Assembly (NCBI GenBank): GCA_964507995.1
Contig: CAZDTD010000001.1
Coordinates: 1,348-65,347, forward strand
DNA from: an uncultured Pirellulales bacterium
Lineage (GTDB): Bacteria > Planctomycetota > Phycisphaerae > Sedimentisphaerales > Anaerobacaceae
Direction of reading: 5' to 3'
DNA length: 64,000 bases
Shown here: in pieces, positions 2,629 through 40,085 of the stretch
How the letters are laid out: every line of letters begins with the position of its first letter
Numbering within the stretch: position 1 is the stretch's first letter
Translations under genes and position numbers: made by a program
The notes under the pieces: generated by a model
What the model saw: only the letters and a program-made list of their open reading frames with translations
What the model was told of the DNA's origin: nothing
Database searches by the model: none

Positions 2629-2638
2629 AGGATGTCCC

Positions 2639-6568: not shown

Positions 6569-6648
6569 CTGGAACCATCTCCAGATACCACACGTCGGTC
6601 AATTGCGGTGGTCCCTCTTCCGGCGCTTTTCCCCCTCTAAAACTCCCC

Positions 6649-6680
6649 TCTCCTGGCCCCCTTTCAGACGCTTTTTTCCA
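6649..6680. repeat. IS21 terminal inverted repeat (istA-proximal end)
   Basis: 'TCTCCTGGCCCCCTTTCAGACGCTTTTTTCCA' is the exact reverse complement of 4138..4169. Confidence 0.9.
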
Positions 6681-7089: not shown

Positions 7090-7136
7090 TCGGACTGAAA
7101 ATCCGTGTGTCGCGGGTTCAACTCCCGCCCTGCCCA
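7090..7136 (+). tRNA. Partial tRNA: 3' portion of a tRNA-Phe(GAA)-like gene. Not a functional tRNA; probable att-site remnant.
   Basis: - Anticodon arm 'TCGGA-CTGAAAA-TCCGT', anticodon GAA with U33 and A37.
- Variable loop 'GTGTC'.
- T arm 'GCGGG-TTCAACT-CCCGC'.
- Acceptor 3' strand 'CCTGCCC' plus discriminator A.
- No complementary 'GGGCAGG' 5' acceptor strand or D arm in the 150 nt upstream. Confidence 0.55.
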
Positions 7137-7224
7137 TTGCTGTAAGTTGAGGGCTGACAATCGTTTACGGTTGCCAGCCTTTTTTGTTGGTCGCGAGAAA
7201 ATGCCCTTTTGCGTCACTTTTGCG

Positions 7225-8022: not shown

Positions 8023-8107
8023 AAGCTGCCTGGAAAGGCATTTCTGATGTACAAGTCGCCCCTTGAGCGCGCACTGTCTCCGCGAGAACGGTAAGGCCGG
8101 AGAAGTG

Positions 8108-11257: not shown

Positions 11258-11314
11258 AGCGATTGCACCTGCGCGCCGAAGCCGTTGTCGTCGGCGACCG
11301 GTTCCAGCAACGCG

Positions 11315-25727: not shown

Positions 25728-28259
25728 ATGCGGTGGAAACCCATACAGGTCGACAGTGTCATCGGGGGACCCAATGACCCCGTTCGGTACCGGGTGCTGC
25801 AGAATCTGGGCGCGGGCAGTTATGGCGAGGTCTTCAAAGTGGCCGACGCCAAACTGAACACGATCTGCGCGCTGAAGACGGTTCACGAGAGGCACCAGAA
25901 CCTCCCCCAGTTCGAATTGGCCGCGTTGCTGGAGCACTTCGAACGAGAGGCGCAGCTGTGGATCTCTCTGCCCGCCCATGAGAACCTTGTGCGCGCGTCG
26001 GCTTTCTATGAATTCCGCGACCAGGGTGACCGCCCGTTCCTGCAAATGGAATTCGTCGGCGGCAACTCCCTGGGGCACGTCCTGGAAAGGCAAGGTGGAC
26101 ACCTTATCCCTGCCGAGGCGCTGCATTACGCGATCGGAATCTGTCGGGGGATGAAGAACGCATGCGACATCGAGAGGCCGGACCGTGTCATCATCCATCG
26201 GGACATCAGTCCGGACAACATCCTAGTGAGCGGCTTCCACGACACGCCGAAAGTGTGTGATTTCGGGCTGGCCCGCTGGGAGGAGGAGAAGACCGTTGGC
26301 AGCATCGCCGGCAAGTGGCTGTACATGGCGCCGGAGGTTCTCATCCGCGGCGGTTGGCTGGGTCCGACGGGCGCCACTCGGGTGGACCGTCGCGCGGACA
26401 TCTACTCCTTCGCCGTCACGTTCTACCAGATGTTGACCGGCTGCGTGCCGATCGACATCCGTCGCGCGGGGCGCAACGCCATCCTTGGTGAGCCGCCGCA
26501 GGACATTCATGCCGTGCTGCCGGAGGGCTTTCCACCGGTGCCGGATGAGCTGCTGGATATCGTGATGGGATGCCTCGAGAAGGACCCGAACGCTCGGATC
26601 GCTCAGACCTGGGACGCGTTGTCCGAGCAGTTGAACAAGTTGAGAGAGGACGTCGAAGCGGCGACGGAGTGCCGGGTGTGCTGTAACTGCGGGTTCCGGT
26701 CGCGACTGACGGCGCCGGTCTCAAAGTGCCCGGTATGCGGGGACACGCGACCAACCACAGTCGTCGGGCGGCGCCCCGGCGAATCGATGTTCACTTCAGC
26801 ATCGCGTGCAAAACAACGCGTCGTGCTTGAGCCCGTATTCCTCCGCGTCACGGCCGGGCAGTCTGTGGTTGGGGCAAACATAACGTTCCTGATGGCCATG
26901 AGAGAGAAGGCCTCCGTGGATGGGGTAGACCTCAGCGTCTTGTCTGACCCGAAAGCGCACCCAGTGGATCTGGCGGCCTTCGAGATCACTCAGACTCCGG
27001 TGACGCAGGAGCAGTTCGCCCGCTTCGAACGGGAGACCGGGTATCGGACCGGCCAATCCGCCTCCAGCGGCGCGAACGGCAATCTACCCGTGACGGGAAT
27101 CACCTTCAGGGAGGCGGAGGCCTTCTGCGATTGGCTGGGCGGTCGGTTGCCCTTGGCGGATGAATGGGAAAAGGCCGCGCGCGGGCTCGATGGTCGGGCG
27201 TACCCGTGGGGCAATGAGTTCAATCGGGACAAGTGCGCGTGCGAGGAGTCGGGTGCAGCCAGGCCGGTTCCGGTCGATGCACACCTGGATGCCCGCGGGC
27301 CTTTTGGACTACTGGCGTGTGTGGGGAATGTCGCCGAGCTGGTCGATGGCGGCGAACACGGCAGCAAATACGCGCTGGGCGGCAGTTTCAGCGATCCCTG
27401 TCGCTACCACGGGTTGCTGTGGGCCCGCGTCCGCATGGTGAAGCCGGACAGGCGGGATCCCAGGATTGGTTTCCGCGTGGCTCGGGATGTGGATCCGCCG
27501 GGAACTTTTGAGCCGAGATTCGTCGGAGTTGAAGGCGAAGCGGTCGTGGGATGCGATCCGTCGCTCGTCACCGAACTGGAGTGTCGCATGTGGCTCGGCG
27601 GACGAGTGGTGGAGGATCTGCGCAAGGATCCGCAGCGTATCGTCACGCTGGCCCCCTACGAGATCGGCGTCTTCACGGTAACGAATGAGGAGTACTGGCA
27701 GTTCGTGAGCCAGACGGGTCATGCACGTCCTTCGCACTGGCGCAGCGAGTCGTGGTCCTGGACCGGTCGTCCATTTCTCAACAAGTACAGATATCATCCC
27801 ATCGTACATGTTACTCAGGGGGATGCCCTGGAGTATTGCCGCTGGCTGACGGACAACGATAGACTCTACACGTACCGCCTGCCGACGCGCGACGAATGGC
27901 AAGCCGCGGCGCGGGGCCGTGAGCCGCGAGTGTACCCCTGGGGTAATGAATTCGACGTCCGACTCTGCAACGGCGGGGAGGCCTCGCGTCAGACGACGGT
28001 GGACGTCCGCGAGTACTCGGCGGGACGCAGTCCGTCCGGCTGCCAGCAGATGACCGGCAATGTCTTCGAGTGGCTATCGCACCAAAACGGCAACACTCGC
28101 TACATGCGAGGCGGCGGCTTCGACAGCGCGTGCGAGCTCTATGGCATGACCTTCTTCGAAGTCGAGACAACTCCCGGCGGCGAATTCGAGTCCACGGGAT
28201 TTCGCGTTGTCAGACAACGGCGCGTATCGTCAGGGATGAGGAATTCGACGCGATTGTGA
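25728..28259 (+). CDS. Ser/Thr protein kinase fused to a zinc ribbon and two FGE-sulfatase (SUMF1-like) domains
   Basis: - Kinase: 'LGAGSYGEVFKV', 'ICALK', 'HRDISPDNILV', 'DFGLAR', 'YMAPEV'.
- Zinc ribbon: 'CRVCCNCG...CPVCG'.
- FGE-like 1: 'PVTGITFREAEAFCDWLGGRLPLADEWEKAARG...YPWGNEF...GNVAELV'.
- FGE-like 2: 'PIVHVTQGDALEYCRWL...RLPTRDEWQAAARG...YPWGNEF...GNVFEWL...RGGGF'.
- I prefer the ATG at 25728 (RBS AAGGTGGAG) over the TTG at 25458. Confidence 0.88.
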   Translation: MRWKPIQVDSVIGGPNDPVRYRVLQNLGAGSYGEVFKVADAKLNTICALKTVHERHQNLPQFELAALLEHFEREAQLWISLPAHENLVRASAFYEFRDQGDRPFLQMEFVGGNSLGHVLERQGGHLIPAEALHYAIGICRGMKNACDIERPDRVIIHRDISPDNILVSGFHDTPKVCDFGLARWEEEKTVGSIAGKWLYMAPEVLIRGGWLGPTGATRVDRRADIYSFAVTFYQMLTGCVPIDIRRAGRNAILGEPPQDIHAVLPEGFPPVPDELLDIVMGCLEKDPNARIAQTWDALSEQLNKLREDVEAATECRVCCNCGFRSRLTAPVSKCPVCGDTRPTTVVGRRPGESMFTSASRAKQRVVLEPVFLRVTAGQSVVGANITFLMAMREKASVDGVDLSVLSDPKAHPVDLAAFEITQTPVTQEQFARFERETGYRTGQSASSGANGNLPVTGITFREAEAFCDWLGGRLPLADEWEKAARGLDGRAYPWGNEFNRDKCACEESGAARPVPVDAHLDARGPFGLLACVGNVAELVDGGEHGSKYALGGSFSDPCRYHGLLWARVRMVKPDRRDPRIGFRVARDVDPPGTFEPRFVGVEGEAVVGCDPSLVTELECRMWLGGRVVEDLRKDPQRIVTLAPYEIGVFTVTNEEYWQFVSQTGHARPSHWRSESWSWTGRPFLNKYRYHPIVHVTQGDALEYCRWLTDNDRLYTYRLPTRDEWQAAARGREPRVYPWGNEFDVRLCNGGEASRQTTVDVREYSAGRSPSGCQQMTGNVFEWLSHQNGNTRYMRGGGFDSACELYGMTFFEVETTPGGEFESTGFRVVRQRRVSSGMRNSTRL

Positions 28260-28319: not shown

Positions 28320-29489
28320 ATGAAGACTACGAGCGTGAAGGCGTCGGGACAACAGGGCTTGCTACTGGCAGTGCTTTCAGGTGCAGTGGCTACCGTGCTC
28401 ACCTATGTCCTGGTGCGATTGGTCACCCCGGACCATCACTATGTCCGAGCCTTGTTCTTCAATCGCGGCCCGATCCAGTACATGACGACTTTCTGCTTTT
28501 GGGTCACCATGTCGATTCTTTTCATCAAGCACGTGCGGTCGCTTCACGAGGAGCAGGCCTACAAGGCGGCCCGTCTCATCCTGGAGGACCCCGATTTCGA
28601 GTTCACCCTGACGTGGACCGGGGCCGACCACGTGCAGCAACGCTTCACCGACGAGGAATTCAGCGACTACCATGACACGCGGACCTTCACGACGGTGATC
28701 AGCGGGCTCGATCGATTGCGCAAGACTCAGAGCACCACGGAGCTCGACGATTATTTCCGCATCCGCACCGAGGTGGCATCCGGGGAACTGGAGACCGGCT
28801 ACGCAAGCATACGGTACCTCATCTGGCTGATCCCCACCCTCGGTTTCATCGGCACCGTCCTGGGAATCGGTTACGGCCTGGCGGGTTTTGCCGAGATCAT
28901 CCAGACGGCCGAGAGTTTCGCCAAGGTCAAGGCGTACTTGCCGAACGTGACGCGACAATTGGGCATCGCCTTCGACACGACGCTGCTGGCCCTGGTGCTC
29001 AGCGTCTTCGCGATGTTGTACCACTCGTGGATGGTCAAACGAGAGGAGCACCTCCTCGAAAAGATCAACGTCCTGTGTCTGGACGGAATATGCCCGCTGT
29101 TCGAAGAGCACAACCGTGAGAAGGAGGAGATTGTCGAAGCGTTGCGCGACAGCACGGAGAAACTACGGACTACCATGAACGGCAATCGGGCCGACATCTC
29201 CGGCGTCATTCTGGAACGCCTCCCGAAACTCATCGCCAGTGAACTGGACGCGAAGCTCGACCAGGTGGGGTCTACGCTTGGCGCACGCGTGGAACAAGTG
29301 TGCGGACCGCTCCATGCTTCGGCAGTCAAGCAGGTTCAGGCGACGGAACAGCTCGGGCCGAAGCTCGACGGCGCGATGGCTCGCGTCGGCGCGTCCCGGG
29401 AGGAGTTGAACGCGCTGCTGGGCGTACTGGTGGAGATTCGCGACGCTCTGGGAGTCTTGAACGATCGGTTGGGACGCCGGCGCGAGTAG
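28320..29489 (+). CDS. MotA/TolQ/ExbB-family proton-channel-like protein with ~150-aa helical tail (stator A-subunit-like, copy 2)
   Basis: Four hydrophobic helices. 'IPTLGFIGTVLGI' and 'LGIAFDTTLLALVLSVFAML' match the MotA/ExbB conserved blocks. Helical C-terminal tail. Confidence 0.8.
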   Translation: MKTTSVKASGQQGLLLAVLSGAVATVLTYVLVRLVTPDHHYVRALFFNRGPIQYMTTFCFWVTMSILFIKHVRSLHEEQAYKAARLILEDPDFEFTLTWTGADHVQQRFTDEEFSDYHDTRTFTTVISGLDRLRKTQSTTELDDYFRIRTEVASGELETGYASIRYLIWLIPTLGFIGTVLGIGYGLAGFAEIIQTAESFAKVKAYLPNVTRQLGIAFDTTLLALVLSVFAMLYHSWMVKREEHLLEKINVLCLDGICPLFEEHNREKEEIVEALRDSTEKLRTTMNGNRADISGVILERLPKLIASELDAKLDQVGSTLGARVEQVCGPLHASAVKQVQATEQLGPKLDGAMARVGASREELNALLGVLVEIRDALGVLNDRLGRRRE

Positions 29490-29512
29490 GTCGCCGACGA
29501 TGGGACATCGAC

Positions 29513-31702
29513 ATGGCAAAAGAGCACATGAGGTCCGTCACACTGTTCGGCACGTCGTTTCTGGACGTGCTGGCGAACACGATCGGAGGGTTGGCCTTCC
29601 TCCTGATCCTCGCGCTGCTGCTGGCAGGCGAGTTGGTCGTCAATGCGCCTCAGATCATGACGGAAGAACTTCCCGCCGCATACCATAATCTCGAGTACCA
29701 AACCTGGCTGGGAGCCAGAGAGGGGATGGGCAGATTCCACTGGAGCTTCGGCGCGGGAACGCATCCTGAAGGACTCAATCTGGATTCCACTACCGGCCGG
29801 CTGTGGGGCAAGCCACAACTGGACCCGAAAAATCCCCAGACGGCCCAGTACAAGTTCTCCGTCATTTGCGAAGCCGTTGGGAGCGACCCAAACGACTATA
29901 AGAAAGACGAGAAGCAGTACCTCATCACGGTCTTTCACGACAAACCGGTCGATCTGTTCCCTCTGCGCATCATCACCGACGCCAATCTGCCCGACGCGTA
30001 CCGGGAGCATTCGTATCCGATGACATTGGCGGCAGAGGGAGGTCAACCGCCTTATTCCTGGTCGATCGTGGACGGCGCATTGCCGACCCCGCTGACGCTC
30101 GCACGTGACGGGCGGTTCGTCGGCGCCCCCGCTACGACAGGGGAATTCCACTTTCAGGCGATGGTTTCCACCAACCGCGGCGAGACGATCACCAGGAGAT
30201 TCTCCCTCAAGGTGTTGTATGCATACCAGCCCCCGCCGCCACTCAAAATCATCACGAAGGAGATGCCCGCCGCGGTCGCGGAGCGTTCCTACAGTTTCTA
30301 CCCGTCGGCGGAAGGGGGAATACCGCCGTACCGGTGGTCGCCGATTGTCGAAACCCCGGCTTGGCTGAAGGCGCTGGGCTCCGACGGCGGCTTCAAAGGC
30401 ACTCCGGCCCTGGAGGATGTTGCCAAGCGTCCGCTCCGCTGGCGCGTGACGGACTACCGCGGCGACTCTGCGGACAGCAACTCGATGGAGTTGGAGGTCG
30501 TGCCTCCGCCCGGTCCGGCGCTGCTGCCTCTGCGAATCAAGACCAAGCAGTTGCCGGAGGGACGTGTCGGGGAATCCTATTCGCTCGCGATCGCGGTCGA
30601 GGGCGGTATGCCGCCGTATCACTGGTCGCTCGGCGCCGTCGATCGCACGCTGGGATTGTCCATTCAGGAGGGGGAAGGCTTGGTGGAAGGAGTCCCGGAA
30701 TCCACGGGAACATATGCAGTTACCCTGGAGGTGTCCGATTCTCGCACAGGCCGAGCCAGCGCGACCTACCAATTGAAGATCCGTCCTGCGCTGACCCCTG
30801 TATCCATTCTGACGGACAAGAGACACTTGGGTCGGGTCGATACGGAATACAGGCTCGCGCTGTCGGCCACGGGAGGGTTCCCTGCCTATCAATGGGCGGT
30901 CTCCGAAGACCGGCTCCCGGAGGGGTTGACGCTGGATCCAACGACCGGGATCATCTCCGGCAGGCCGAAGGCCGCGGGCACCTCCAAATTCGCCGTATCC
31001 GTAGAAGACGCGGAGGGCACGGGACCGTCACAAACGTGTCCCATCGAGATCGAAATACTCACACAGGAAAACGTAAGCAAGCTCGTCGTGACGACTTTGA
31101 CTCTGCCCTTGTTGGTGGCCGGACGCGAGGTGGAGGTGGCGCTCGCCTGTGAAGGAGGCGTTGGACCATACACGTGGAAGGCGGAGGGCACCCTTCCGGA
31201 TGGACTGTCCGTCAGGGAGGGTCAGCTCACTGGTGCGACAAAGGACGCCGGAGATTTCGACGTGACGTTCATCGTCGCGGATTCCAGCGGGCAGCAGGCA
31301 CAGAGTCCTGTGCAACTGCATGTCCGGCGGATGGCGCCCCTGTGGCAGCTCGTTCTCATGAGTCTGATCGCTATCGCGTTCCTTGTCCTGGCCGCATGGT
31401 TCGCCCGGCTGGCTCGTCGGTATCGACCCTTGGAAACGGAGCCGCTCGTGGTCTTGTCGAAGTCGCTGCCGAATGCAAGAGCTTCCTGCGATTATTCGGT
31501 GCAACTGGCCTGTATGGGAGGGACCGCTCCGTATACGTGGCGTTTGGTGAAAGGTGAGTTGCCCGAGGGACTGACACTGGATCCCACCGGCTTGTTGCAC
31601 GGCTGCCCCTTCACCAAAACGCGCGTGAACGAGACCATTGACATGCCCTTCACGGTAGAGGTCCGCGACCAAAGGGGACAGACCGCTCAACAGGAACTGT
31701 GA
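29513..31702 (+). CDS. B-subunit-like membrane protein: Asp-containing N-terminal TM, six Ig-like (He_PIG/'putative Ig') repeats, a second TM, then a seventh Ig-like repeat
   Basis: - ATG at 29513, 23 nt after the MotA-like stop.
- N-terminus 'TSFLDVLANTIGGLAFLLILALLL' has a MotB/ExbD-like Asp at the TM edge.
- Repeats marked by 'GGQPPYSWS', 'GGIPPYRWS', 'GGMPPYHWS', 'GGFPAYQWA', 'GGVGPYTWK', 'GGTAPYTWR', plus a degenerate first copy ('GRFHWSF'). Each is followed by 'LP.GL.LD..TG...G.P'.
- Second TM 'LWQLVLMSLIAIAFLVLAAWFA' lies before the last repeat. Confidence 0.85.
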   Translation: MAKEHMRSVTLFGTSFLDVLANTIGGLAFLLILALLLAGELVVNAPQIMTEELPAAYHNLEYQTWLGAREGMGRFHWSFGAGTHPEGLNLDSTTGRLWGKPQLDPKNPQTAQYKFSVICEAVGSDPNDYKKDEKQYLITVFHDKPVDLFPLRIITDANLPDAYREHSYPMTLAAEGGQPPYSWSIVDGALPTPLTLARDGRFVGAPATTGEFHFQAMVSTNRGETITRRFSLKVLYAYQPPPPLKIITKEMPAAVAERSYSFYPSAEGGIPPYRWSPIVETPAWLKALGSDGGFKGTPALEDVAKRPLRWRVTDYRGDSADSNSMELEVVPPPGPALLPLRIKTKQLPEGRVGESYSLAIAVEGGMPPYHWSLGAVDRTLGLSIQEGEGLVEGVPESTGTYAVTLEVSDSRTGRASATYQLKIRPALTPVSILTDKRHLGRVDTEYRLALSATGGFPAYQWAVSEDRLPEGLTLDPTTGIISGRPKAAGTSKFAVSVEDAEGTGPSQTCPIEIEILTQENVSKLVVTTLTLPLLVAGREVEVALACEGGVGPYTWKAEGTLPDGLSVREGQLTGATKDAGDFDVTFIVADSSGQQAQSPVQLHVRRMAPLWQLVLMSLIAIAFLVLAAWFARLARRYRPLETEPLVVLSKSLPNARASCDYSVQLACMGGTAPYTWRLVKGELPEGLTLDPTGLLHGCPFTKTRVNETIDMPFTVEVRDQRGQTAQQEL

Positions 31703-31717: not shown

Positions 31718-33016
31718 TCAGGGTCGTTCCATGCGCGTGGTCAAAGCGTCGGCATCCTGCTGGAGTCTGTCGAGGCTTTGGAGAATGATGCGTCGGTCCT
31801 TTGCGTTGGGCCCCCAGAACTTCTTCTCCAGCTTCTGGAAGACCGCGATCAGATCTTCGATCTGGTTGGAAAGCGCAATGGCCTGGCTGAAGTCCGTGCG
31901 CATGGCCGCAAGGCAATCCCTGTGTTCTCTCGTCAATTCGTTGACGGCCAACGCAAAGGTCTCCGTGCGCTGACGATCGGCGTTCTCTCGCTCGCTCAGA
32001 TCGCCTGCCAGTTGTGCGACATTCTGGGCGAGTTGCTCGAGCTCCTTCTGAGCCTGGGCATCCGACTCCGCGCCGGAGCGGGCCAGGGTTCGAACGAGTT
32101 GTGTAACCTGCTCGTTGTCGCTCTGCACGCGGGCATCGAGTCTCGTGGTGAGATCCGCCAGAGCATCCACTCGCTGGGATAACGTCTGCGCATCCGCTTG
32201 GGCGCGACGATCCGATGTCTCCGCGGATACTTGCAGACGCGAGATCTCTGCAACGAGCAGTTGGTGCCGGTTCTCCTGGTCATTGGCAAGCGAGGGAACG
32301 ATCTGAGCGAGTCGGTCAAGCTCCGTTCGAGCCTGGGCGTCCGATTCCGCGTGGGAGCGGGCCAGGGTTTGAACGAGTTGCGTGAGCTGCTCGTTGTCGC
32401 TCTGGACACGGGCTTCAAGTCTCGTGGCGAGATCCGCCAGGGCATCGACCCGCTGGGATAACGTCTGCGCATCCGCCTGGGCGCGACGATCCGATGCCTC
32501 TGCGGATGCTTGCAGGCGTGAGATCTCCGCAACGAGCAGTCGGTACCGGTCCTCCTGGGCGTCGGAGGGGGAAGGAGCCGCCTGTGCGACTGAGTCGAGT
32601 CGTTCCTGCATGGCCTCCTGACGCATCAGCGACGACCGCCAGCCACGGGCGGCTGGAATCGCCCAGACGAGAGTGCCGATGACGAGAGACGCCGCGATCA
32701 CCAGAACCGCTGCAAGGTGCATCCTGCCGTCACAGAGCAAGCGCATCATGCGACTCCGTTTCATCCTTTCGGCAAGACGGAGCGCCTTCTGTGACTCGAC
32801 ATCCTGCGGATCCTCCTGCAGGATCTTGCGCCACAGATCGATGGCGAGGTCGAACTGTCTTTGTTGCGCAGCGATCTTCGCTCGCAGATGCTTGGCTTGT
32901 CGCGTCTCCTGCGCCGGCTCGAGCCGATCCAACATCGCCTTGGCGGCCTCGTAGTCCCTCCTGGACGCCAATCCCGCTGCTGCTTGCACGATCGCTTCCG
33001 GATCAGAAACTGCCAT
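31718..33016 (-). CDS. TPR / single-TM / long coiled-coil protein containing a 93-aa tandem duplication
   Basis: - ATG at 33016 with RBS GGAGAG (the ORF-track start at 33031 is TTG).
- TPR-like N-terminus ('DYEAAKAMLDRLEP...FDLAIDLWRKILQEDPQ').
- TM 'LAAVLVIAASLVIGTLVWAI'.
- Duplicated 'LLVAEISRLQ.SAE.SDRRAQADAQTLSQRVDALADL.TRL.ARVQSDNEQ.TQLV.TLARS'. Confidence 0.85.
   Translation of the reverse strand: MAVSDPEAIVQAAAGLASRRDYEAAKAMLDRLEPAQETRQAKHLRAKIAAQQRQFDLAIDLWRKILQEDPQDVESQKALRLAERMKRSRMMRLLCDGRMHLAAVLVIAASLVIGTLVWAIPAARGWRSSLMRQEAMQERLDSVAQAAPSPSDAQEDRYRLLVAEISRLQASAEASDRRAQADAQTLSQRVDALADLATRLEARVQSDNEQLTQLVQTLARSHAESDAQARTELDRLAQIVPSLANDQENRHQLLVAEISRLQVSAETSDRRAQADAQTLSQRVDALADLTTRLDARVQSDNEQVTQLVRTLARSGAESDAQAQKELEQLAQNVAQLAGDLSERENADRQRTETFALAVNELTREHRDCLAAMRTDFSQAIALSNQIEDLIAVFQKLEKKFWGPNAKDRRIILQSLDRLQQDADALTTRMERP
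32040..32560. repeat. Tandem direct repeat, 279-nt period, ~1.9 copies, inside the coiled-coil gene
   Basis: 'gagcctgggcatccgactccgc...' at 32051 recurs as 'gagcctgggcgtccgattccgc...' at 32330. 'ctcgttgtcgctctg' occurs at 32111 and 32390. Offset 279 nt = 93 codons, in frame. Confidence 0.9.
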
Positions 33017-33063
33017 GAGAAGACTCTCCAATAGATGCTACACGAAATTCAAGTCATCGCTCG

Positions 33064-35670
33064 CTAACGCTGGGAAAGCCAGATCCCTTCGGCGCCTGGC
33101 GCCGGCGCCGGCCACTGGCCCAGCTCTCGTACCCAGTGTCTCCACAACTCCTGACGGACCCGGTTCGCCTCCTGCAATTCCTCGTCGGTGATGATTTCGC
33201 CCCGGAGGTCCTCGTCGTTCATCCTGCTGGCGACTCTGTAGGCATCGTTGTAGGCATTCAGTTGCGGCGGGGTGCCTCGGAAGGACCGGGGGAACGTGTT
33301 GACGTCACGTATGAGATCGCAGAGCACTCGCAGGCGGACCGTGTAGTAGAGTCGCTTCAGCGAGTTCTCGATACTGTCGAGGGCCATTTTGTCGCCTCGG
33401 TCCAGGGCCTGTTCGAGTTCGGCGCCGATCGCTTTGAGCTCCTCGGCATCGCTTCCGGTCAGAGTACGTTGGAGCACGTGGAAGAACCGTCGGAGTCGGG
33501 GTCCCACCTGGAGATCCTCCAAGTGGTGGACCGCACCAGTCAGCCTCAGAATATCACGATAGCAGCGCGACTGGCATTCCCGATCGTCTTCTTTCGTTCG
33601 TTCGAGGTTCCTCTCGATTTGAGCGATGACCTCCTGCTCGCGGATCTGCTGGAGTCTCTCGGTTACGGTTGGCGTCGGAGACTCCGCGTCGATTCGCTCG
33701 ACGGCCTGCAGCAACAAACGCCTGCGTGCGAACTCCCGGGTCATCTCCTCGGCTGGGGGATCGTTCAACGCCCCCATGAATTCGGCCTCGTATTTGCCGC
33801 CCACGGATCGCACGCTGGCCTGAACCGTGATCTGTCGGTTCCGATCTCGCTGAAGCGTCACTTCCACGAGCGAACCGGCAGGCAAATCGTTAGAGAGTTC
33901 GGTTCCCAGAATTCTCAGCTCGCCCACCTTCAGGTTGGCATCGCCATGAGGATCGACGGCGCCGAAGAAATGCTCGAGACCTTCCAACACCGGGATCACA
34001 AGCACATCCTCGTCATGGCCGCGCCTGAGGCGACTGACCGTGACGTATTCCCCTGTCTTCTCGGCGGGCAACCGGACTCCCTGTTGCAGCAGAATCTCCG
34101 TCCCATTGTCGTGCAAGCCCACCATCAGGTGCGACGGCAGTACGTCATCGGCGCTGGCGTAGGGGTGCCATATCCGCGGCTCATCGCATGTCACGACTGC
34201 ATGACCGCCCGCGTCGAGGATCCGTGTCTCGAACTCAGACAGCGTGGGACCGGAGGCCTGAATCAGACTCACGTCCGCCTCGAAGAGCCCGGTCTCATCG
34301 ATCGGCACCAATCCGCTCGACCACAAACCGTCCTTCCTCTTGATCTCCACCATCCAGCCATTCCAGGGTTGGCCGTCGCCTTGGATTCGTCCCATCACGG
34401 GGCAGATCGGCACATTGGAGAACGACGCGTACTTGAGGTCGACGCCCAGCTCTGATGGAAGCGGGGGTTTCTTGGGGGTTGGCAACTTGTCGGAAGGGAT
34501 CTCCACCGTGGCAGCGAAGATGGCAGCTCCCTGCGCCACCGCCGTCATGGGGTCAATGCGCGATTCGAGCGGGATTCCGAGGCGGTCGCGCAGAACCTGC
34601 TGGACGTAGGGCGTCTTGCTCGGTCCCCCAATCAGGATGATCCGCTGCACATCCGAGGGCCTGAGCCGGTTCTTGTCCAGGAGGTTTCTGCAGGTGATGA
34701 CGGCCCGCTCCACATCGGACGCGATGAGACGCTCATACGCGCTCCGCTCGATCGGAAACTCAACCTTCACCAACTGCTTCGCGGAATCTTCGAAGGGCTG
34801 GGGACACCTGATCACGGTCCGCTCTTTCTCGGATAGTTCGATCTTGCCCCTCTCGACCGCAAGGCTCAGCATTCCCCAAGCGGATCGCCTCATTTCCTGC
34901 GGGAGGTCCTCCAGGCTGTACTGCTCGCGCAGCGGACGGTAGTCCGGGTCCAGTTTGCGGTGAGTCTCCATTTTGATGTTGTACTGCGGGTCCACCTTGC
35001 GCGGCCCGAGGACGAAGTCGAGCAACTCCCGGTCGAACTTCCGGCCGCCCAGAAGGACATCCCCCGCGTTGCCTTCCGGCAGGGGGGTGCAGCGACCGTT
35101 TCTGATGACCATCAGGGAGATGTCGAGCGTGCCGCCACCGAGATCGAAAACCATCCACTTGACATTCTTGTCTTCCGCCGTGAAACCATAGGCCAGCGCC
35201 GCTGCGACAGGCTCCATCAGAGTCTGCGCAAACGTCAACCCGGCGCATTCCGCGGCCTTGAGGGTTGCCGCACATGCGGGCTGCTCCCACTTGGCCGGGA
35301 CCGTGACTACAGCCGCACCATAGTCGGGATTGCCATCGTCCCGGTAGGCACGCATCAACTCATTGATGACGATCCCTCCCAGCTCCGGGACCGCAAGCAC
35401 CTTGCCTCCCGGGAACTCATATCGATCGTCATGACCCAGGCGGATCTTGTACCCGGTGTAGCCGATGCCGCCGTCGGGCTCCATTAGCATCGCCTGTATG
35501 GCAGCGTGACCAATGAGCAGTCGGCCGCGGTTGCTGTAGTAGACGGCCGACGGCAGTACAGGGTTGATGCCGTCGGGCTTGATCACGCGCGGGCCGTTCT
35601 TCTCCATGACCGCGATGGCGGAATTGCTGGTGCCGTGATCGATCCCGCAAGGAATGAAGGTTCTTCCCAT
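33064..35670 (-). CDS. Hsp70-family ATPase (868 aa) with inserted domain and long helical C-terminal extension
   Basis: 'GIDHGTSNSAIAV' (phosphate-1), 'DLGGGTLDISL' (phosphate-2), 'IILIGGPSKTPYVQQVL' (adenosine motif). SBD-beta-like region 'VLVIPVLEG...ANLKVGELRILG...VEVTLQRDRNRQITVQA'. RBS AAGGAG. Confidence 0.92.
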   Translation of the reverse strand: MGRTFIPCGIDHGTSNSAIAVMEKNGPRVIKPDGINPVLPSAVYYSNRGRLLIGHAAIQAMLMEPDGGIGYTGYKIRLGHDDRYEFPGGKVLAVPELGGIVINELMRAYRDDGNPDYGAAVVTVPAKWEQPACAATLKAAECAGLTFAQTLMEPVAAALAYGFTAEDKNVKWMVFDLGGGTLDISLMVIRNGRCTPLPEGNAGDVLLGGRKFDRELLDFVLGPRKVDPQYNIKMETHRKLDPDYRPLREQYSLEDLPQEMRRSAWGMLSLAVERGKIELSEKERTVIRCPQPFEDSAKQLVKVEFPIERSAYERLIASDVERAVITCRNLLDKNRLRPSDVQRIILIGGPSKTPYVQQVLRDRLGIPLESRIDPMTAVAQGAAIFAATVEIPSDKLPTPKKPPLPSELGVDLKYASFSNVPICPVMGRIQGDGQPWNGWMVEIKRKDGLWSSGLVPIDETGLFEADVSLIQASGPTLSEFETRILDAGGHAVVTCDEPRIWHPYASADDVLPSHLMVGLHDNGTEILLQQGVRLPAEKTGEYVTVSRLRRGHDEDVLVIPVLEGLEHFFGAVDPHGDANLKVGELRILGTELSNDLPAGSLVEVTLQRDRNRQITVQASVRSVGGKYEAEFMGALNDPPAEEMTREFARRRLLLQAVERIDAESPTPTVTERLQQIREQEVIAQIERNLERTKEDDRECQSRCYRDILRLTGAVHHLEDLQVGPRLRRFFHVLQRTLTGSDAEELKAIGAELEQALDRGDKMALDSIENSLKRLYYTVRLRVLCDLIRDVNTFPRSFRGTPPQLNAYNDAYRVASRMNDEDLRGEIITDEELQEANRVRQELWRHWVRELGQWPAPAPGAEGIWLSQR

Positions 35671-35713
35671 GATTGGCTCCTTAGGTTACTCGCTGTCCAT
35701 CCGGATGCGGCTT

Positions 35714-36226
35714 TCATTGAGGTTTCGCGATGGTTCCTCGCCCCTGCTGCAGCAGCCGCCGTCCCGACATGACTACTGGCGACTCGCACTGGATAATGGT
35801 TCTGTAGGCAAGACCCGGCCTGACTTCAGGCTCGCCGAAGGCCCGGAAATCGAGACGACCTTCATCATATGCCTGTCCCGTGACGTCAATGCAACGAATG
35901 TCGTTCTTCTCCAGGGTGGATTGCAGATCGTCAAGGTATCGCTTCACATTCCGTGTTTCTGCACTCTGGATTCCTTCACGTTCCATCTGTCGGATTTGAC
36001 ACCCGATCCAGAAATGATTGTTGCATAGCGCGATGGCCAACTTGTCCGGGATCGTCTTTGGCGGCTCGCCGGGCGCCGACGTCGGAGGCTTCTGGATGCA
36101 GGCGGACGCAAGCGAAAGACTGCGGACCAGAGCCTGCTTCCATTCGCTCGACTTCGGGGCACAGATGCGAAAAGGGACCGGGTAGGTCCGCTGACACACG
36201 CGGATCAGAATGTCAACCAAGCTCAT
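35714..36226 (-). CDS. GrpE-like nucleotide-exchange-factor candidate (170 aa)
   Basis: Located 43 nt upstream of the Hsp70 start on the same strand. The C-terminal 'VTGQAYDEG...YRTIIQCESPVVMSGRRLLQQGRGTI' resembles the GrpE beta-domain pattern 'G..FDP..H.A......V..V...GY....R.LR.A.V.V'. RBS GAGGGA. Confidence 0.5.
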   Translation of the reverse strand: MSLVDILIRVCQRTYPVPFRICAPKSSEWKQALVRSLSLASACIQKPPTSAPGEPPKTIPDKLAIALCNNHFWIGCQIRQMEREGIQSAETRNVKRYLDDLQSTLEKNDIRCIDVTGQAYDEGRLDFRAFGEPEVRPGLAYRTIIQCESPVVMSGRRLLQQGRGTIAKPQ

Positions 36227-36256
36227 CGATAGATTCCCTCAAGAAGGCCAAGACGC

Positions 36257-38932
36257 TTATGTCTTCATGAAACGCAGGAGGACTTCTATGTGATTCCCAG
36301 GCGAGGCGACCAGCATCTCCAGACACCGGTTGAACTCGTCTTGCGACAGGTTCTTCTGCAACAAGGCCAGCAGATTCTTCTCGGATGGCGTCAGGGAGTC
36401 AAGCAAGCGTTGGGTCTCCGGATTGACGCGTCCAGGGGGTGGTTGCAGGCCGTCGTTGTAACCGCTGGTCTTGCTGTTCCTGTAGACAGGGAACCGGTTT
36501 TTGTGCGATTCCGGCTTTACGACATTGTCGAGCTGGCGCCACAGTTGTGCGATCTCGTCGTCAAGTTTCACGATCTGGGACTGAGCCGTGTTTTTGAGTT
36601 GCTCGATGCCCGCCTCCAGGTCCGCTGTCATCTTGTCGATCTTCACTTTGTGGCTGCCCAGACGCCGGAGCGGCCCCGCCACAGCCTGCCTGTACGTGTT
36701 CTCGATCTTCTGTCGATTCTCATTCATCTGTGCCTCAGCAACGTGAACCTCCGCGTCCCGCTGCGCCTGGACCTCGCCCAACATTTCCCCGGCGACACCC
36801 AGGCGACGTCCCGCGACTCTCCTGCTTGCGAAGAAGCCGCCCCCCAATCCCAGCAGCGCTGCGAGCAAGACCACGAACACAGGTAAAGGCGTCAACACCG
36901 TCAGGACAGCTCCCACGAGCGCCAGAGACGCAGAGCCGATGCTCATGTACGGCAAGCAAACGAGGAAGAACCCCTTCCATCCGGTCACCCGAGAATGCAC
37001 CGATGTACATACCTGCCAGTATTCATCGAGCTGTGGCGCGAACTGCTGTTCGATTTGTCTGATCCTTGCGTCATACCGAGCCTTGAGATCAGCAAGCGAT
37101 GCGTCGTGCACGTCCTGCTGGTTCTTGATGAGTTTGCGGTCCTCCTCTGCCTGTTTCGCTACCGAAGCATCCAGCCTGCGGACTTGGCTCTCGCAAACGC
37201 TTCGCATTTGTTGCATCTTCTCGTCACGGTCCCGTCGTACCTGCTTCTGTTGTTCGCGTTTCCCGTCCACCGTTTGCTGTACCTGGCAGTGTTTGTCCGT
37301 GCCGCCGATGCGTTTGCCGGCGACGTCCGCATCCTGAATCTGTCCGTCGTGCCTAGCTTTGGCGACCCGGGAACGCGGCACCAGGACATAGCACGATTCA
37401 TATCGGACGACAAGAACCGTTTCGCAGACGATCTTATGGACCGGAATCAGGATGGACGATTCCGGGTCGGCGGGCTCTCCGTCGAGGAACCAGCATTGAC
37501 CGAGGTCAAGGTCCACCGGCACATTGATTGACCCGTACAGAGACCGCACGTCGCTCTGTACCGATTGCAGAACGGTGCGCCGCGTCGCAGGGGACAGAGG
37601 CAGTCGAGACATCCGCTTGCCAGTAAGTATGGAATAATAGAGCGCGGGTTCTCTCTCTTGGGCATAGTCAATCCGGCTGCGCGTCGCGTCCAGGATGGCC
37701 CCACAGAGGGCATCGAAGCCAGCTAGACGCAGAAGATCGTCGCGCACGTTCAATCGACCGCCCAAGAGACGGTACAACGATTCCGCTTCGCAGATCAGAG
37801 GATCATAGAAATCGGCGAAGTCTCTCCACGTGGTCTTCCCGGTGGTAGAGAACCGCTTGGGCTGTCGGACGGGTACTGTCGCGCCGCTCGCGGAGAATCC
37901 GCAGTACGCACAGGTCGTTGTGTCCCAGGCAAAGGAGTATCCGCATCTCGGACACGCGTAGTCCCCCGCCCCTTCCGGCGGGGACGCGCGGAGAGCAGGA
38001 TCCATTTCGAAGTACTCCTGTCCCTCAGGGTTCTTCGCTCGCTGCACAAGCGGCTCAAGCTGATACTGCGTCAAGCCCTGCACGATCACGGTGAGACGAT
38101 TGTCGATGATTGGCTGGGCCAGACCATAGCTCGTGATGAGCCCTTGATGCTCACGATAGATGTCCTGCCGGCCGGTCCTTGCATATGTCGTGGCAAACAG
38201 GGAATTGAATCCCAGAACCGCATTGGCCACGCCGTACGCAAGTTGGTCGTCCACATCCTCCGGCTTGACCAATGGTGCTCGATCCGCCACCCGGCTTCGG
38301 ATATAGTCCCAGAAATCGCGAGCGGCCAACGTGTTGGCCCAACATGTCAGGCACTGCGTCCAATGCTCCTGAGGCCACTGATTCCGCTGGCCCGTGAGGA
38401 AGTCGATTTCTTCAGTCAGCGCCAGGTTGTGGTAGACAATCGCCATAGCGTGCTCGGTCAACACCGAGCTGTACCCGATGGTCCGTTGATGGATGAGCTC
38501 CTCGACGACAGCCCGATTCGTCAGGCATCCTTCCTTCTTGGCAGCAACAAGCACGGTTCCATCAACGTGCGGCCAGAAGATCTCGCAGAAGGTGCGCCAC
38601 TGCGGACCGTTCAGACGCGAGACGCAGTCCGCGACGTTCTGAATGCACAGATGTGCGTCGTAGCCCAAGCGGATTGCGATGCGGTCCACGGCCGCCGGAT
38701 TCAGCTCCTGGAGCTGACATACGCGTTGGATGGCGCGCTCCAGCGAATCATCGTCGACGTTGGCGAATGTGCCCAGAAATCGGAAGCTGTTCTGTGCATA
38801 TAGACCGCCATCGACGGCAACGCCCATGATGCTCACGCCGAACGGCTTGCTCAACAGCCGAGGAGCCTGAAGCTTGCCATCGATGATCGTACTGCCGGTC
38901 GGTTCATTCCATGGACTGGGCACGCCGCTCAT
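36257..38932 (-). CDS. 891-aa protein: possible degenerate J-like N-terminus (NPA instead of HPD), zinc ribbon, coiled coils flanking a double-TM hairpin
   Basis: - 'NSFRFLGTFANVDDDSLERAIQRVCQLQELNPAA' aligns by eye to J-domain helix I-II plus the HPD loop ('DYYEILGV....EIKKAYRKLA.KYHPD').
- Zinc ribbon 'CPRCGYSFAWDTTTCAYCG'.
- TM region 'FFLVCLPYMSIGSASLALVGAVLTVLTPLPVFVVLLAALLGLGGGFFA'.
- RBS GAAAAGAGG.
- The CDS itself is solid; the J-like call is weak. Confidence 0.8.
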   Translation of the reverse strand: MSGVPSPWNEPTGSTIIDGKLQAPRLLSKPFGVSIMGVAVDGGLYAQNSFRFLGTFANVDDDSLERAIQRVCQLQELNPAAVDRIAIRLGYDAHLCIQNVADCVSRLNGPQWRTFCEIFWPHVDGTVLVAAKKEGCLTNRAVVEELIHQRTIGYSSVLTEHAMAIVYHNLALTEEIDFLTGQRNQWPQEHWTQCLTCWANTLAARDFWDYIRSRVADRAPLVKPEDVDDQLAYGVANAVLGFNSLFATTYARTGRQDIYREHQGLITSYGLAQPIIDNRLTVIVQGLTQYQLEPLVQRAKNPEGQEYFEMDPALRASPPEGAGDYACPRCGYSFAWDTTTCAYCGFSASGATVPVRQPKRFSTTGKTTWRDFADFYDPLICEAESLYRLLGGRLNVRDDLLRLAGFDALCGAILDATRSRIDYAQEREPALYYSILTGKRMSRLPLSPATRRTVLQSVQSDVRSLYGSINVPVDLDLGQCWFLDGEPADPESSILIPVHKIVCETVLVVRYESCYVLVPRSRVAKARHDGQIQDADVAGKRIGGTDKHCQVQQTVDGKREQQKQVRRDRDEKMQQMRSVCESQVRRLDASVAKQAEEDRKLIKNQQDVHDASLADLKARYDARIRQIEQQFAPQLDEYWQVCTSVHSRVTGWKGFFLVCLPYMSIGSASLALVGAVLTVLTPLPVFVVLLAALLGLGGGFFASRRVAGRRLGVAGEMLGEVQAQRDAEVHVAEAQMNENRQKIENTYRQAVAGPLRRLGSHKVKIDKMTADLEAGIEQLKNTAQSQIVKLDDEIAQLWRQLDNVVKPESHKNRFPVYRNSKTSGYNDGLQPPPGRVNPETQRLLDSLTPSEKNLLALLQKNLSQDEFNRCLEMLVASPGNHIEVLLRFMKT

Positions 38933-38969
38933 AACAGAAGACCTCTTTTCCCCCGAGGGGCCCCCCCGA

Positions 38970-39320
38970 TTACTTTGAGTGCGTACGCTTCTCCATCTGC
39001 CGCACTTTCTTGCAGTTCTCCCATGCCGCTAGTTGCTCGTCGTATGGAGCAACAGTTCCTTGCATGTGGATGCCGATCTTGCGGGCGACCTGCTGCGCCT
39101 TGTAGAACACTCCCTTGGCCTGGCTGTTCTCAATGTCCATGAAGGCCAGGATGAAACTCTTGTTGGGATCGAGCGTCTTGAGGAACTTGATGAAGGCTCC
39201 GGCCGGTGCGTCCAATCCGTTCTCCGGACTTGCCGACCCGTCGTAGAGCGCTACCTGATGGGCCTCACAGAGGACGGATTCCTGCCTTAGATCCACGGGA
39301 ACGTGCGGTTCCACTTTCAT
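38970..39320 (-). CDS. Hypothetical protein (116 aa)
   Basis: ATG preceded by GAGAAGG. Located 37 nt upstream of the 891-aa gene. No recognisable motif. Confidence 0.6.
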   Translation of the reverse strand: MKVEPHVPVDLRQESVLCEAHQVALYDGSASPENGLDAPAGAFIKFLKTLDPNKSFILAFMDIENSQAKGVFYKAQQVARKIGIHMQGTVAPYDEQLAAWENCKKVRQMEKRTHSK

Positions 39321-39785: not shown

Positions 39786-40085
39786 CTACGCCGCCGTACG
39801 CTTGCTGCTCGGGAGCGTGATCTCGGGCGTCTGCTCCTCGCCGTGGCTCGCAGGAATCGCATGGGGCGCCTTGGCGGACATGATGGCCAATGCCACAATG
39901 ACAGACAAATCGATGAGCAGTCCGATCCCGAAGGCTGCTTCTACATCACCGCCATTGGCCTCAATGGCCAACCCCAGCAGGAAGGCGCAGACGAAGCCAA
40001 TCACCATCGGCGTCAAAGCCCAGCCCTTCCAACCCCGTTTCCACGCCTTGCAGGTCAGGCCAATCTCAATCAATAGAGTGATCAT
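39786..40085 (-). CDS. Small membrane protein (99 aa, 2-3 TM helices)
   Basis: ATG preceded by GAAAGGAAGG. Hydrophobic segments 'WALTPMVIGFVCAFLLGLAI' and 'FGIGLLIDLSVIVALAIM'. Confidence 0.65.
   Translation of the reverse strand: MITLLIEIGLTCKAWKRGWKGWALTPMVIGFVCAFLLGLAIEANGGDVEAAFGIGLLIDLSVIVALAIMSAKAPHAIPASHGEEQTPEITLPSSKRTAA

Follow-up and report, generated by a model that had tools for sequence, protein, structure and literature searches.

A MotA/ExbB-type channel gene and an Ig-repeat partner gene form the conserved core of an uncharacterized multigene system found in at least five bacterial phyla

Introduction

Can a protein with two predicted membrane helices and seven immunoglobulin (Ig)-like domains serve as the second subunit of an ion-driven motor, and what would such a motor do? 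The question is raised by two adjacent genes, here called A and B, at positions 28320 to 31702 of a 64,000-nucleotide stretch of DNA (the window) from an uncultured Pirellulales bacterium (Planctomycetota; Phycisphaerae; GenBank assembly GCA_964507995.1, contig CAZDTD010000001.1, positions 1,348 to 65,347). To our knowledge, only a handful of 5:2 ion-driven motors are understood, namely the flagellar stators, the Ton and Tol systems, the gliding/type 9 secretion motors and Zorya. Each of them revealed a new use of membrane energy outside the membrane.

A sequence-only reading of the window had described A as a MotA/ExbB-like channel protein and B as a stator B subunit whose periplasmic part is replaced by Ig-like repeats. 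Here, we show that A and B are an obligate pair and the conserved core of an uncharacterized multigene system. We read the pair, with a probability of about 0.6, as a variant of the 5:2 ion-driven motors that acts as an envelope-to-cytoplasm transducer, probably of a conflict or defense system. The two genes are as follows.

28320 to 29489, plus strand: gene A, 389 residues, channel subunit of the MotA/ExbB/TolQ/ZorA type
29513 to 31702, plus strand: gene B, 729 residues, with helix 1, six He_PIG Ig-like domains, helix 2 and one more He_PIG domain

The stop codon of A and the ATG of B (29513) are separated by 23 nucleotides and both genes are on the plus strand, confirming the coordinates first reported.

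A and B are an obligate pair

Gene A lies immediately upstream of gene B in every locus examined, i.e., in the window, together with its identical metagenomic contigs, and in 14 independent loci from at least five phyla (L004 to L008, L010, L011, L014, L051, L087 to L089, L092 and L093). These include a 7.4-Mb assembly (L004) and loci of Hydrogenedentota (L006), Phycisphaerales (L008), Sumerlaeota (L010), Phaeodactylibacter (L014) and Pyrinomonadaceae (L051); the more distant ones are L087, L088, L089, L092 and L093. Co-occurrence of the two genes elsewhere, which had been put forward as a check on their association, was thus observed throughout. In addition, the protein searches with A and with B returned many further matches that lie on contigs of equal length. 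The pairwise identities of A, B and an Hsp70-like protein encoded close by are correlated across loci (r of ~0.8; 0.81), which indicates that the conserved set travels together. The distribution of the pair is sporadic, with occurrences in Phycisphaerae, Hydrogenedentota, Sumerlaeota, Acidobacteriota and Bacteroidota, and patterns derived from the first helix of B were matched in 5 of 185,579 species representative genomes. Members of the B family are annotated as hypothetical by NCBI.

A is a motor A subunit

Protein A matches the Pfam family MotA_ExbB (PF01618) with 32.8 bits against a cut-off of 22.9 (E value of 6.4e-8, residues 128 to 249), and all its close homologues carry the same domain. 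Its AlphaFold2 (AF2) model, with a predicted local distance difference test (pLDDT) score of 81, is all-helical, and a long helix runs from the last transmembrane (TM) segment on into a helical C-terminal tail (residues ~240 to 389). In a Foldseek search of this model against the PDB, ZorA (8qyk_A) ranked first with an E value of 9.6e-4, followed by TolQ and ExbB chains. Target-normalized TM-scores ranged from ~0.4 to 0.72, with MotA lower, and the probabilities of the matches to ZorA, TolQ, ExbB and MotA were 0.93 to 1.00, falling to 0.84 for MotA at rank 50. Models dedicated to ZorA matched A weakly (NCBIfam ZorA_3, 16 bits against a cut-off of 250; PADLOC ZorA, partial, E values of 4e-6 to 4e-3). 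Because the PF01618 match is above threshold and the best fold matches are ZorA, TolQ, ExbB and MotA, we assign A to the motor A subunits, with a shape closest to those of ZorA, TolQ and ExbB. The initial description of A, helical tail included, is upheld by these results. Hydropathy and the AF2 model suggest a MotA-like topology with four helices, as listed here.

28359 to 28415, plus strand: predicted TM1 of A, residues ~14 to 32
28479 to 28535, plus strand: predicted TM2 of A, residues ~54 to 72
Between TM2 and TM3, plus strand: predicted cytoplasmic domain of A, residues 73 to 165
28815 to 28889, plus strand: predicted TM3 of A, residues 166 to 190
28959 to 29036, plus strand: predicted TM4 of A, residues 214 to 239
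29037 to 29486, plus strand: predicted helical cytoplasmic tail of A, residues 240 to 389 (~150 residues)

Among 47 homologues, P172, G175, G178, T179, V180 and G182 of TM3 and A217, F218, D219 and T221 of TM4 are invariant. Those of TM3, together with D219 and T221, may correspond to the functional residues of MotA, ExbB and TolQ in the Pro/Gly/Thr pattern of the last two TM helices, which line the ion path. By analogy with every solved relative, A would be expected to form a pentameric ring, and the solved members of its family are 5:2 ion-driven motors (PMC9389320, PMC11946911).

B has one conserved layout with two helices and seven Ig-like domains

As the N termini of 39 orthologues align to the ATG at 29513, the 729-residue form of B was taken as the real one, and a longer open reading frame (ORF) starting at a GTG codon (29300) was rejected. 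A 518-residue antisense ORF (29336 to 30892) and other overlapping ORFs were treated as artefacts of high GC content, since the sense-strand proteins have conserved homologues.

The He_PIG domain (PF05345), for which a search had been suggested at the outset, matches B with 185.9 bits against a cut-off of 24, in six stretches. A hidden Markov model (HMM) made from six of B's own repeats recovered seven domains, including the degenerate first one (residues 43 to 128), which was outside the seed and was still found with an i-E value of 4.6e-15. The AF2 model (pLDDT of 85) consists of seven beta-sandwiches and two helices (residues 16 to 37 and 610 to 636), and in Foldseek the beta-sandwiches match the domain strings of titin, DSCAM and cadherin. 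The succession of six Ig-like repeats, a second TM helix and a seventh repeat, read from the letters in the first place, therefore agrees across the repeat HMM, Pfam and AF2, and both helix sequences quoted at that time are present exactly as given.

29558 to 29638, plus strand: helix 1 of B, FLDVLANTIGGLAFLLILALLLAGELV, residues 16 to 42; the Asp18 codon is at 29564 to 29566
29639 to 29896, plus strand: Ig domain 1, residues 43 to 128, degenerate, predicted periplasmic
29945 to 30220, plus strand: Ig domain 2, residues 145 to 236, predicted periplasmic
30224 to 30505, plus strand: Ig domain 3, residues 238 to 331, predicted periplasmic
30512 to 30787, plus strand: Ig domain 4, residues 334 to 425, predicted periplasmic
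30782 to 31057, plus strand: Ig domain 5, residues 424 to 515, predicted periplasmic
31064 to 31333, plus strand: Ig domain 6, residues 518 to 607, predicted periplasmic
29639 to 31333, plus strand: the six predicted periplasmic Ig domains together
31340 to 31405, plus strand: helix 2 of B, LWQLVLMSLIAIAFLVLAAWFA, residues 610 to 631
31427 to 31699, plus strand: Ig domain 7, residues 639 to 729, He_PIG, predicted cytoplasmic

The B family recovered by protein searches comprises proteins of 711 to 753 residues that cover 98 to 100% of B with 39 to 87% identity. All 44 database clusters share one layout, i.e., helix 1, a number of He_PIG domains, helix 2 and exactly one He_PIG domain. The number of domains between the helices is six in 39 clusters, five in three, four in one and three in one. 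That the same layout recurs in 44 clusters argues that it is not due to chance; in a census of the matches, generic He_PIG proteins had neither helix 1 nor this layout.

Conservation is uneven along the protein. Identity among orthologues is 73% in helix 1, the best conserved part of B, 39 to 44% in the periplasmic Ig domains, 24% in helix 2, the least conserved part, and 55% in the C-terminal Ig domain, the best conserved of the Ig domains, with many invariant positions. Helix 1 is flanked by net charges of +2.5 on its N-terminal side and -1.0 on its C-terminal side, and the 15 residues behind helix 2 carry +3.1. This distribution is consistent with the topology proposed earlier, in which both termini would be cytoplasmic, six Ig domains would face outward and the seventh would lie inside the cell. 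Helix 2 would then be a poorly conserved membrane anchor that brings the chain back to the cytoplasm.

Two of the generic He_PIG matches (P0194 and P0198) join a Pkinase domain to a TM segment and some seven He_PIG domains; in layout they seem to resemble receptor kinases whose outer part is made of this type of Ig repeat.

Helix 1 and the B-subunit question

The near-invariant motif of helix 1 in the orthologues is S-F-L-D-V-L-A-N-T-I-G-G-L-A-F-L-L. At F16, L17, D18, V19, A21, N22, T23, I24, G25, G26, L27, F29, L30 and L31, conservation among the 39 orthologues is complete or reaches at least 90%. Asp18 occurs in 37 of the 39, and the two exceptions are gene calls that are apparently truncated at the N terminus. 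The placement of an Asp at the helix edge, noted originally as the layout of a B subunit, is thus a conserved trait of the family.

If helix 1 were instead a cleaved signal peptide, helix 2 would be the only anchor of B, an exported Ig-repeat protein without functional relation to A. A positively charged N terminus followed by a hydrophobic stretch is what this explanation would predict, and B has both. However, the stretch spans ~28 residues, no other region of B is as well conserved, its D, N, T and GG residues are invariant, and the orthologues continue after it with the consensus V-F-x-P-P. Proline is unfavorable at the signal peptidase site. Together with the synteny of A and B in every locus examined, these features make a cleaved signal peptide very hard to credit, and the refutation that the sequence-only reading had envisaged for helix 1 did not materialize.

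B is B-subunit-like by position and layout only, as homology to known B subunits was not found by sequence. The kinship to MotB/ExbD first proposed for B thus stands for gene position and helix layout and falls for sequence similarity, which was detected with none of ExbD, TolR and MotB. The segment F-L-D-V-L of B resembles P-F/L-I/L-D-V-M/L of ExbD and TolR (verified in the Escherichia coli sequences), a likeness that may serve as a motif-level lead. Canonical ExbD/TolR genes were sought in the fetched loci for a comparison profile, and none were there.

This lack of sequence-level similarity would fit an arrangement in which B is not the axle of the motor. TolA and TonB are long periplasmic proteins able to bind the outside of such rings, and B could similarly be a TolA/TonB-like or unrelated accessory outside the A ring, or be merely co-transcribed, with A working alone or with another partner. 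Yet acidic residues are not found in the TM helices of any other protein in the conserved set, and adjacency of A and B is strict in the 14 independent loci. Moreover, helix 1 rather than the ectodomain is the most conserved part of B and has its invariant Asp at a position typical of B subunits, and the same helix type heads other proteins encoded directly after MotA_ExbB genes. We therefore hold it improbable that B lies outside the ring, and likely that A and B together form a MotAB-like complex.

Searched against 1.84 billion proteins, the helix-1 profile returned 151 significant representative proteins (sequence clusters), of which ~35 are members of the B family. The remainder, exemplified by the helix REIEIFSFSFLDILACTVGAL, have other ectodomains: a coiled coil with an unassigned C-terminal domain, a coiled coil with a second helix, one to three He_PIG domains with a second helix, or other repeats. 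For the only match without He_PIG whose context was checked (locus L090), the gene immediately follows a MotA_ExbB gene, and genes for a kinase and an FGE protein are close by. Given the varied ectodomains of the 151 matches and the context in L090, we regard helix 1 as the hallmark of a broader, as yet undescribed group of B-position proteins. The proteins of L090 and of a second motor module in the window (module 1) share with B the helix type, a position after MotA_ExbB and, nearby, a kinase and an FGE protein. They differ from it in that a coiled coil and an alpha/beta-looking domain replace the Ig domains and that most lack the second helix. No description of such proteins was found in the literature. 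The C-terminal domain of those with 250 to 290 residues was considered as an ExbD domain and rejected, having no Pfam match.

The gene order in L090 (GCA_964409935.1, positions 621 to 7517) is receptor Ser/Thr kinase with a TM segment, MotA_ExbB (306 residues), two B-position proteins with an FLD helix (264 and 284 residues) and a secreted FGE-sulfatase protein (281 residues). The combination of kinase, motor and FGE fold thus recurs beyond the He_PIG family, and it echoes the FGE-fold GldK/PorK of type 9 secretion. Module 1 of the window (17221 to 19910, plus strand) starts with a second MotA_ExbB protein (365 residues, PF01618 E value of 4.7e-9), followed by two overlapping ORFs (18275 to 19075 and 19017 to 19910), both of which encode a TM helix and a coiled coil. 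At the C terminus, their products carry a domain that blastp aligns (1e-15 to 1e-8) with that of 250- to 500-residue proteins whose N-terminal helix is of the B type; the second ORF's own helix, KITPVLDFGTLLVMILL, looks ExbD-like. Judging from these sequence matches, module 1 and the A-B module may belong to one extended superfamily.

The A-B pair is embedded in a conserved gene set

The conserved partners of A and B, which the sequence-only reading had not recognized, are an Hsp70-like ATPase module, a TPR-TM protein with an OmpA-like domain in some loci, and a protein with an effector part followed by FGE domains (effector-FGE protein). In operons with a long B, the order is A, B, a small protein (116 to 144 residues), a TM-hairpin/coiled-coil protein (~620 to 960 residues), a protein of ~170 to 210 residues, the Hsp70-like ATPase (866 to 888 residues) and the TPR-TM protein, with the kinase-FGE gene at one end. 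In the window, the second half of this operon is inverted onto the minus strand (31718 to 39320).

25728 to 28259, plus strand: effector-FGE protein, a soluble Ser/Thr kinase with a zinc ribbon and two FGE-sulfatase (C-type-lectin-like) domains
31718 to 33031, minus strand: TPR-TM protein, with cytoplasmic TPR, a TM helix (residues 107 to 125) and a coiled coil; last gene of the conserved set
33064 to 35670, minus strand: Hsp70-like ATPase, 868 residues, with an actin/Hsp70-fold N-terminal half and an uncharacterized C-terminal half
35714 to 36226, minus strand: conserved soluble protein, ~170 to 210 residues in the loci, with blastp orthologues in the operon loci
36257 to 38932, minus strand: 891-residue protein with a large N-terminal domain, a TM hairpin (~655 to 694) and a C-terminal coiled coil
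38970 to 39320, minus strand: small soluble protein, 116 residues, without a Pfam match

The ORF of the effector-FGE protein is open from 25458, and the gene call in an identical contig gives 843 residues. The protein matches Pkinase (3.5e-36) and, in two stretches, FGE-sulfatase (1.4e-57); in the window, it has neither a TM segment nor a signal peptide. Homologues are encoded within the 10-kb flanks of A-B in L004, L005, L006, L010, L011, L051 and L088, either directly beside A-B or at the far end of the Hsp70 set.

The Hsp70-like protein matches PF00012 (5.9e-53) and is far under the NCBIfam cut-offs for DnaK and HscA. Orthologues of 866 to 873 residues with 36 to 41% identity are present in all seven operon loci compared, and L088 codes for an 888-residue Hsp70 protein. 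The protein of ~170 residues has no Pfam or PDB relative, and its candidacy as a GrpE-like exchange factor found no support in Pfam or PDB profile searches. Orthologues of the 891-residue protein occur in seven operon loci. Its matches in Pfam, PADLOC and the PDB are at the level of the coiled coil, and Pfam and PDB profile searches gave no support to a J-domain protein. Proteins similar in size to the small soluble one (116 to 144 residues) are encoded directly after B in the co-directional operons of L004 to L007, L051 and L092; the likeness is one of position and size.

The TPR-TM protein has counterparts in L004, L005 and L051. In the window, its coiled coil contains a 279-nucleotide tandem duplication (32023 to 32580) whose two copies, 84% identical, double a 93-residue segment. 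An OmpA-like domain was detected above the cut-off of 27.2 bits in the L051 counterpart (38.4 bits) and just below it in that of L005 (26.4 bits); therefore, wall binding can be supplied in trans.

A force link between B and the giant propeller protein encoded in the window had also been proposed. This idea was not borne out, as the giant and MoxR genes stand beside A-B in no other locus; likewise, neither the 3216-residue giant protein and the MoxR gene nor a 1275-residue protein and module 1 have homologues near A-B in the other loci compared.

Short forms define the most general unit

Three of the more distant loci encode shorter B proteins.

L089 (GCA_040755795.1): Pkinase+TIR+FGE protein (1095 residues, in the interval 3801 to 7955), A (476 residues) and B (408 residues), beside a CHAT gene and two ParA-like genes
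L093: HD-CE+TPR+FGE protein (842 residues, 841 to 3369), A (491 residues) and B (400 residues), with a ParE toxin gene and a YhcG-family gene
L087: no FGE partner, A (344 residues) and B (382 residues, three Ig domains), without notable neighbors

The B protein of L089 has a canonical helix 1, three Ig domains and helix 2 and lacks the cytoplasmic Ig domain. That of L093 has the same layout plus a C-terminal zinc ribbon. In all three loci, the Hsp70 module is absent and the short B has no cytoplasmic Ig domain. This domain is present, together with the Hsp70 module or the genes that precede the module, in the window and in L004 to L007, L010, L051, L088 and L092; L011, whose B ORF has full-length coverage, is not counted for architecture in this tally. 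In these few loci, the cytoplasmic Ig domain goes with the Hsp70 module. Because the short forms do without that module, the most general unit is the A-B pair, usually with an effector-FGE protein.

The effector part N-terminal to FGE varies, from a kinase (window) to kinase and TIR (L089) to HD-CE and TPR (L093). PKD domains are present in the partner kinases of L004 and L006, which have no TM segment, so that cytoplasmic Ig-like domains are not odd in the A-B system.

Gene neighborhood points to a possible conflict role

In the NTP-dependent conflict systems described by Kaur et al. (2020, PMC7159879), a core built on MoxR-vWA, a GTPase or a peptidase cascade is accompanied by variable effectors that precede an FGS domain in the protein chain. 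The order effector, then FGE around A-B follows this syntax; a MoxR-vWA or GTPase core is missing from the A-B/Hsp70 set itself. Genes of conflict type are found next to A-B in several loci, namely TIR and CHAT (L089), CHAT-TPR (L005), an nSTAND kinase (L007) and a ParE toxin with a YhcG-family protein (L093). FHA proteins are encoded in the neighborhood of A-B in L004, L005, L088 and the window, a PP2C protein in L088, and insertion sequence (IS) elements and an integrase are present in L004 and the window.

The system could instead be a housekeeping force transducer across the envelope, of the Tol-Pal, Ton or GldLM kind, whose Ig stalk acts on the wall or outer membrane for maintenance, the surface layer, gliding or secretion; it would then not sense attack. 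The ruler-like variation of the Ig string from three to six domains would suit such a function, as would the OmpA-like partner of some operons and the signal peptide on the FGE protein of the related locus L090. The type 9 secretion motor offers a parallel in its beta-rich GldM/PorM (PMC5790014) and FGE-fold PorK/GldK (PMC12421860). In contrast, no outer-membrane barrel, secretin or lipoprotein belongs to the conserved set, the B chain returns to the inner membrane and has no free distal end, and the FGE domains of the window partner have neither signal peptide nor TM segment. In addition, the best conserved partners are cytoplasmic, the distribution is patchy, and TIR, CHAT, STAND and mobile-element genes are neighbors. 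We regard a housekeeping transducer of this kind as unlikely. The odds that the system is a conflict or defense transducer rather than a housekeeping envelope machine are, in our estimate, even.

Relation to known motors

The closest working analogy for A-B is Zorya, an anti-phage 5:2 motor in which envelope perturbation activates ZorAB and the ZorA tail recruits effectors (PMC11946911). The A model matches ZorA best and has a helical cytoplasmic tail behind its last TM helix; A-B also belongs to a variable multigene set with cytoplasmic partners, a sporadic distribution and a defense-island-like neighborhood. The proposed course of events, in which an envelope event would lead to ion-driven movement and then to a cytoplasmic response, would be shared as well. 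However, the tail of A has ~150 residues compared with ~500 in ZorA, Ig repeats, a further helix and one cytoplasmic domain take the place of a peptidoglycan-binding domain in B, and the A-B partners are Hsp70-like, kinase-FGE and TPR-TM proteins. With PADLOC and NCBIfam models, no ZorB match was obtained in B and no ZorC-ZorG homologue among the neighbors. Membership in Zorya thus fails on the defining models.

For the B ectodomain, the closest anatomical analogy is GldM/PorM. This dimeric 18-nm stalk, largely beta, stands in the periplasm on a single helix in the GldL pentamer and works with the FGE-fold PorK/GldK ring (PMC5790014, PMC8986121, PMC12421860). An N-terminal helix followed by a long, largely beta periplasmic part in the B-type subunit and an FGE-fold partner are common to both systems. 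In contrast to GldLM, A is a PF01618 protein and not a GldL, B has no GldM domain, and the FGE domains are part of a soluble kinase. Whereas GldM has a free end in the periplasm and touches the outer-membrane ring there, B returns to the inner membrane, and the A-B system extends beyond Bacteroidota. The top 50 fold matches of A and B include no GldL, GldM or PorM, and membership in GldLM fails on the defining models too.

With ExbB-ExbD and TolQ-TolR, A-B shares the A fold (TM-score of up to 0.72 to ExbB), the order A then B, and an Asp two residues into the B helix. It differs from them by an A subunit with four predicted TM helices as in MotA rather than three, a B protein without the ExbD-type periplasmic domain, a helix-1 profile without significance and a conserved set without a TonB or TolA gene. 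Features common to A-B and MotAB/PomAB are the Pfam family, the predicted four-helix A subunit with a large cytoplasmic loop between TM2 and TM3, and the Asp layout of B; the separate OmpA-like protein of some operons recalls the C-terminal domain of MotB. Unlike in MotAB, no flagellar genes are nearby, and B itself has neither a plug region nor an OmpA domain. MotA ranks under ZorA, TolQ and ExbB in the fold search.

We found no paper that joins He_PIG with MotA, ExbB or TolQ. A survey of MotAB homologues (PMC12505986) makes no mention of Ig-like B subunits or Hsp70 partners, and in PMC7159879 ExbB and TolQ are unmentioned and MotA is absent from a full-text search. The sequence-only reading had called a B subunit with an Ig stalk an undescribed arrangement. 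This needs qualification, as beta-rich B subunits that span the periplasm are known from GldM/PorM (PMC5790014, PMC8986121), but the return of B through a second helix, its cytoplasmic Ig domain and the partner set are new, with no description found.

A candidate envelope-to-cytoplasm transducer

How might such a pair work? Two copies of B helix 1 would sit as a dimer inside the A pentamer, like the helices of MotB, ExbD, TolR and ZorB, with helix 1 as the axle and Asp18, near the cytoplasmic face, as the ion-binding residue. Ion flow at the A-B interface would drive relative movement of ring and axle. The B chain would arch over the A ring by means of its three to six periplasmic Ig domains (six in the window) and re-enter the bilayer outside the ring through the unconserved helix 2; in members of the long family, a single, strongly conserved Ig domain would thereby become available to partners in the cytoplasm. 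Clamped in this way, B may immobilize the axle against the turning ring and its 150-residue tail, much as MotB and ZorB use the wall for that purpose. It could also gate ion flow depending on the condition of the periplasm or wall, and it may report envelope state to the cytoplasm. A peptidoglycan anchor, where present, would be the separate TPR-TM-OmpA protein of the same operon, and output would pass through the cytoplasmic Ig domain, the A tail, the Hsp70-like module and the effector-FGE protein. The role envisaged is that of an ion-motive-force-dependent envelope sensor and transducer of a conflict or defense system, comparable to ZorAB and made of different parts. The 5:2 assembly, topology, ion use, rotation and defense role are inferred.

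Several observations weigh against this proposal. An HMMER profile built from 47 sequences of A retrieved no solved MotA, ExbB or TolQ among the PDB sequences, its matches being coiled-coil noise in the tail, so the Pfam model and the fold search are what connects A to solved A subunits. Pfam searches with whole B and its N-terminal fragments gave no ExbD (PF02472) or MotB signal, and the helix-1 profile had zero matches in the PDB at an E value of 10 or less. Tested on verified E. coli and Serratia reference sequences in a background of 4,351 ORFs, the profile placed the references at ranks 84 to 524 of 4,355, with ExbD, TolR and MotB at background level. The link between Ig domain 7 and Hsp70 depends on three negative loci. 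The defense role is drawn from gene neighborhood; no protein gave a convincing match to PADLOC or NCBIfam defense models (PADLOC reported a generic kinase and weak ZorA/coiled-coil matches), and the conserved set has no known nuclease-type effector. Viral contigs searched for A-B relatives contained none, leaving a phage origin without support.

A bolder version of the proposal is that A-B represents a new class of 5:2 machine, with an axle clamped on both membrane faces that mechanically links the state of the envelope with an Hsp70-like ATPase and effectors of the kinase, TIR or HD type, and that it is one branch of a larger family of B proteins with an F-L-D-V/I-L helix. We advance this version tentatively, as the less probable one.

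To the known motors, A-B would add a B subunit that does not bind the wall and whose chain, instead of ending in the periplasm, loops back to place a conserved domain in the cytoplasm; its gene set also brings in an Hsp70-like ATPase together with effectors of the kinase, TIR or HD type. If it is a defense or stress relay, it would be a second, independent case after Zorya of a motor used as a sensor, and the first coupled to a chaperone-type ATPase. A clamp on two faces would be a trans-membrane mechanical relay for immunity or stress signaling without a described counterpart. The helix-1 profile provides a handle on ~150 sequence clusters of further uncharacterized B-type proteins. With eight genes and clear targets for point mutations, the system is compact.

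Other features of the window

The remaining features of the window are listed by position.

133 to 2628: SNF2 helicase
4275 to 9175, minus strand: mobile elements, with an IS21 pair (IstB, 4275 to 5039; rve/Mu-type transposase, 5036 to 6568), a phage-type integrase (7225 to 8022) and an rve transposase (8108 to 9175)
9404 to 13711, minus strand: FHA-domain protein (617 residues) and ClpB-like double AAA+ protein (798 residues)
39786 to 40085, minus strand: 99-residue ORF with two TM helices
40391 to 61262, minus strand: giant 3216-residue protein with one N-terminal TM helix, and proteins of 723, 994 and 627 residues without a Pfam match
58214 to 59464, minus strand: bpMoxR AAA+ protein (PF20030, 7.5e-47)

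The 99-residue ORF lies between the gene of the 116-residue protein and the giant gene; it is also called in the identical contig L001, and no family was found for it. The region from 40391 to 61262 looks like a ternary conflict system of the MoxR-vWA-beta-propeller type that is not conserved with A-B elsewhere. The same FHA/ClpB-like pair is encoded next to A-B in the Phycisphaerales contig L008, where the ClpB-like protein is 59% identical, and it is possibly an extended phospho-signaling part of the system.

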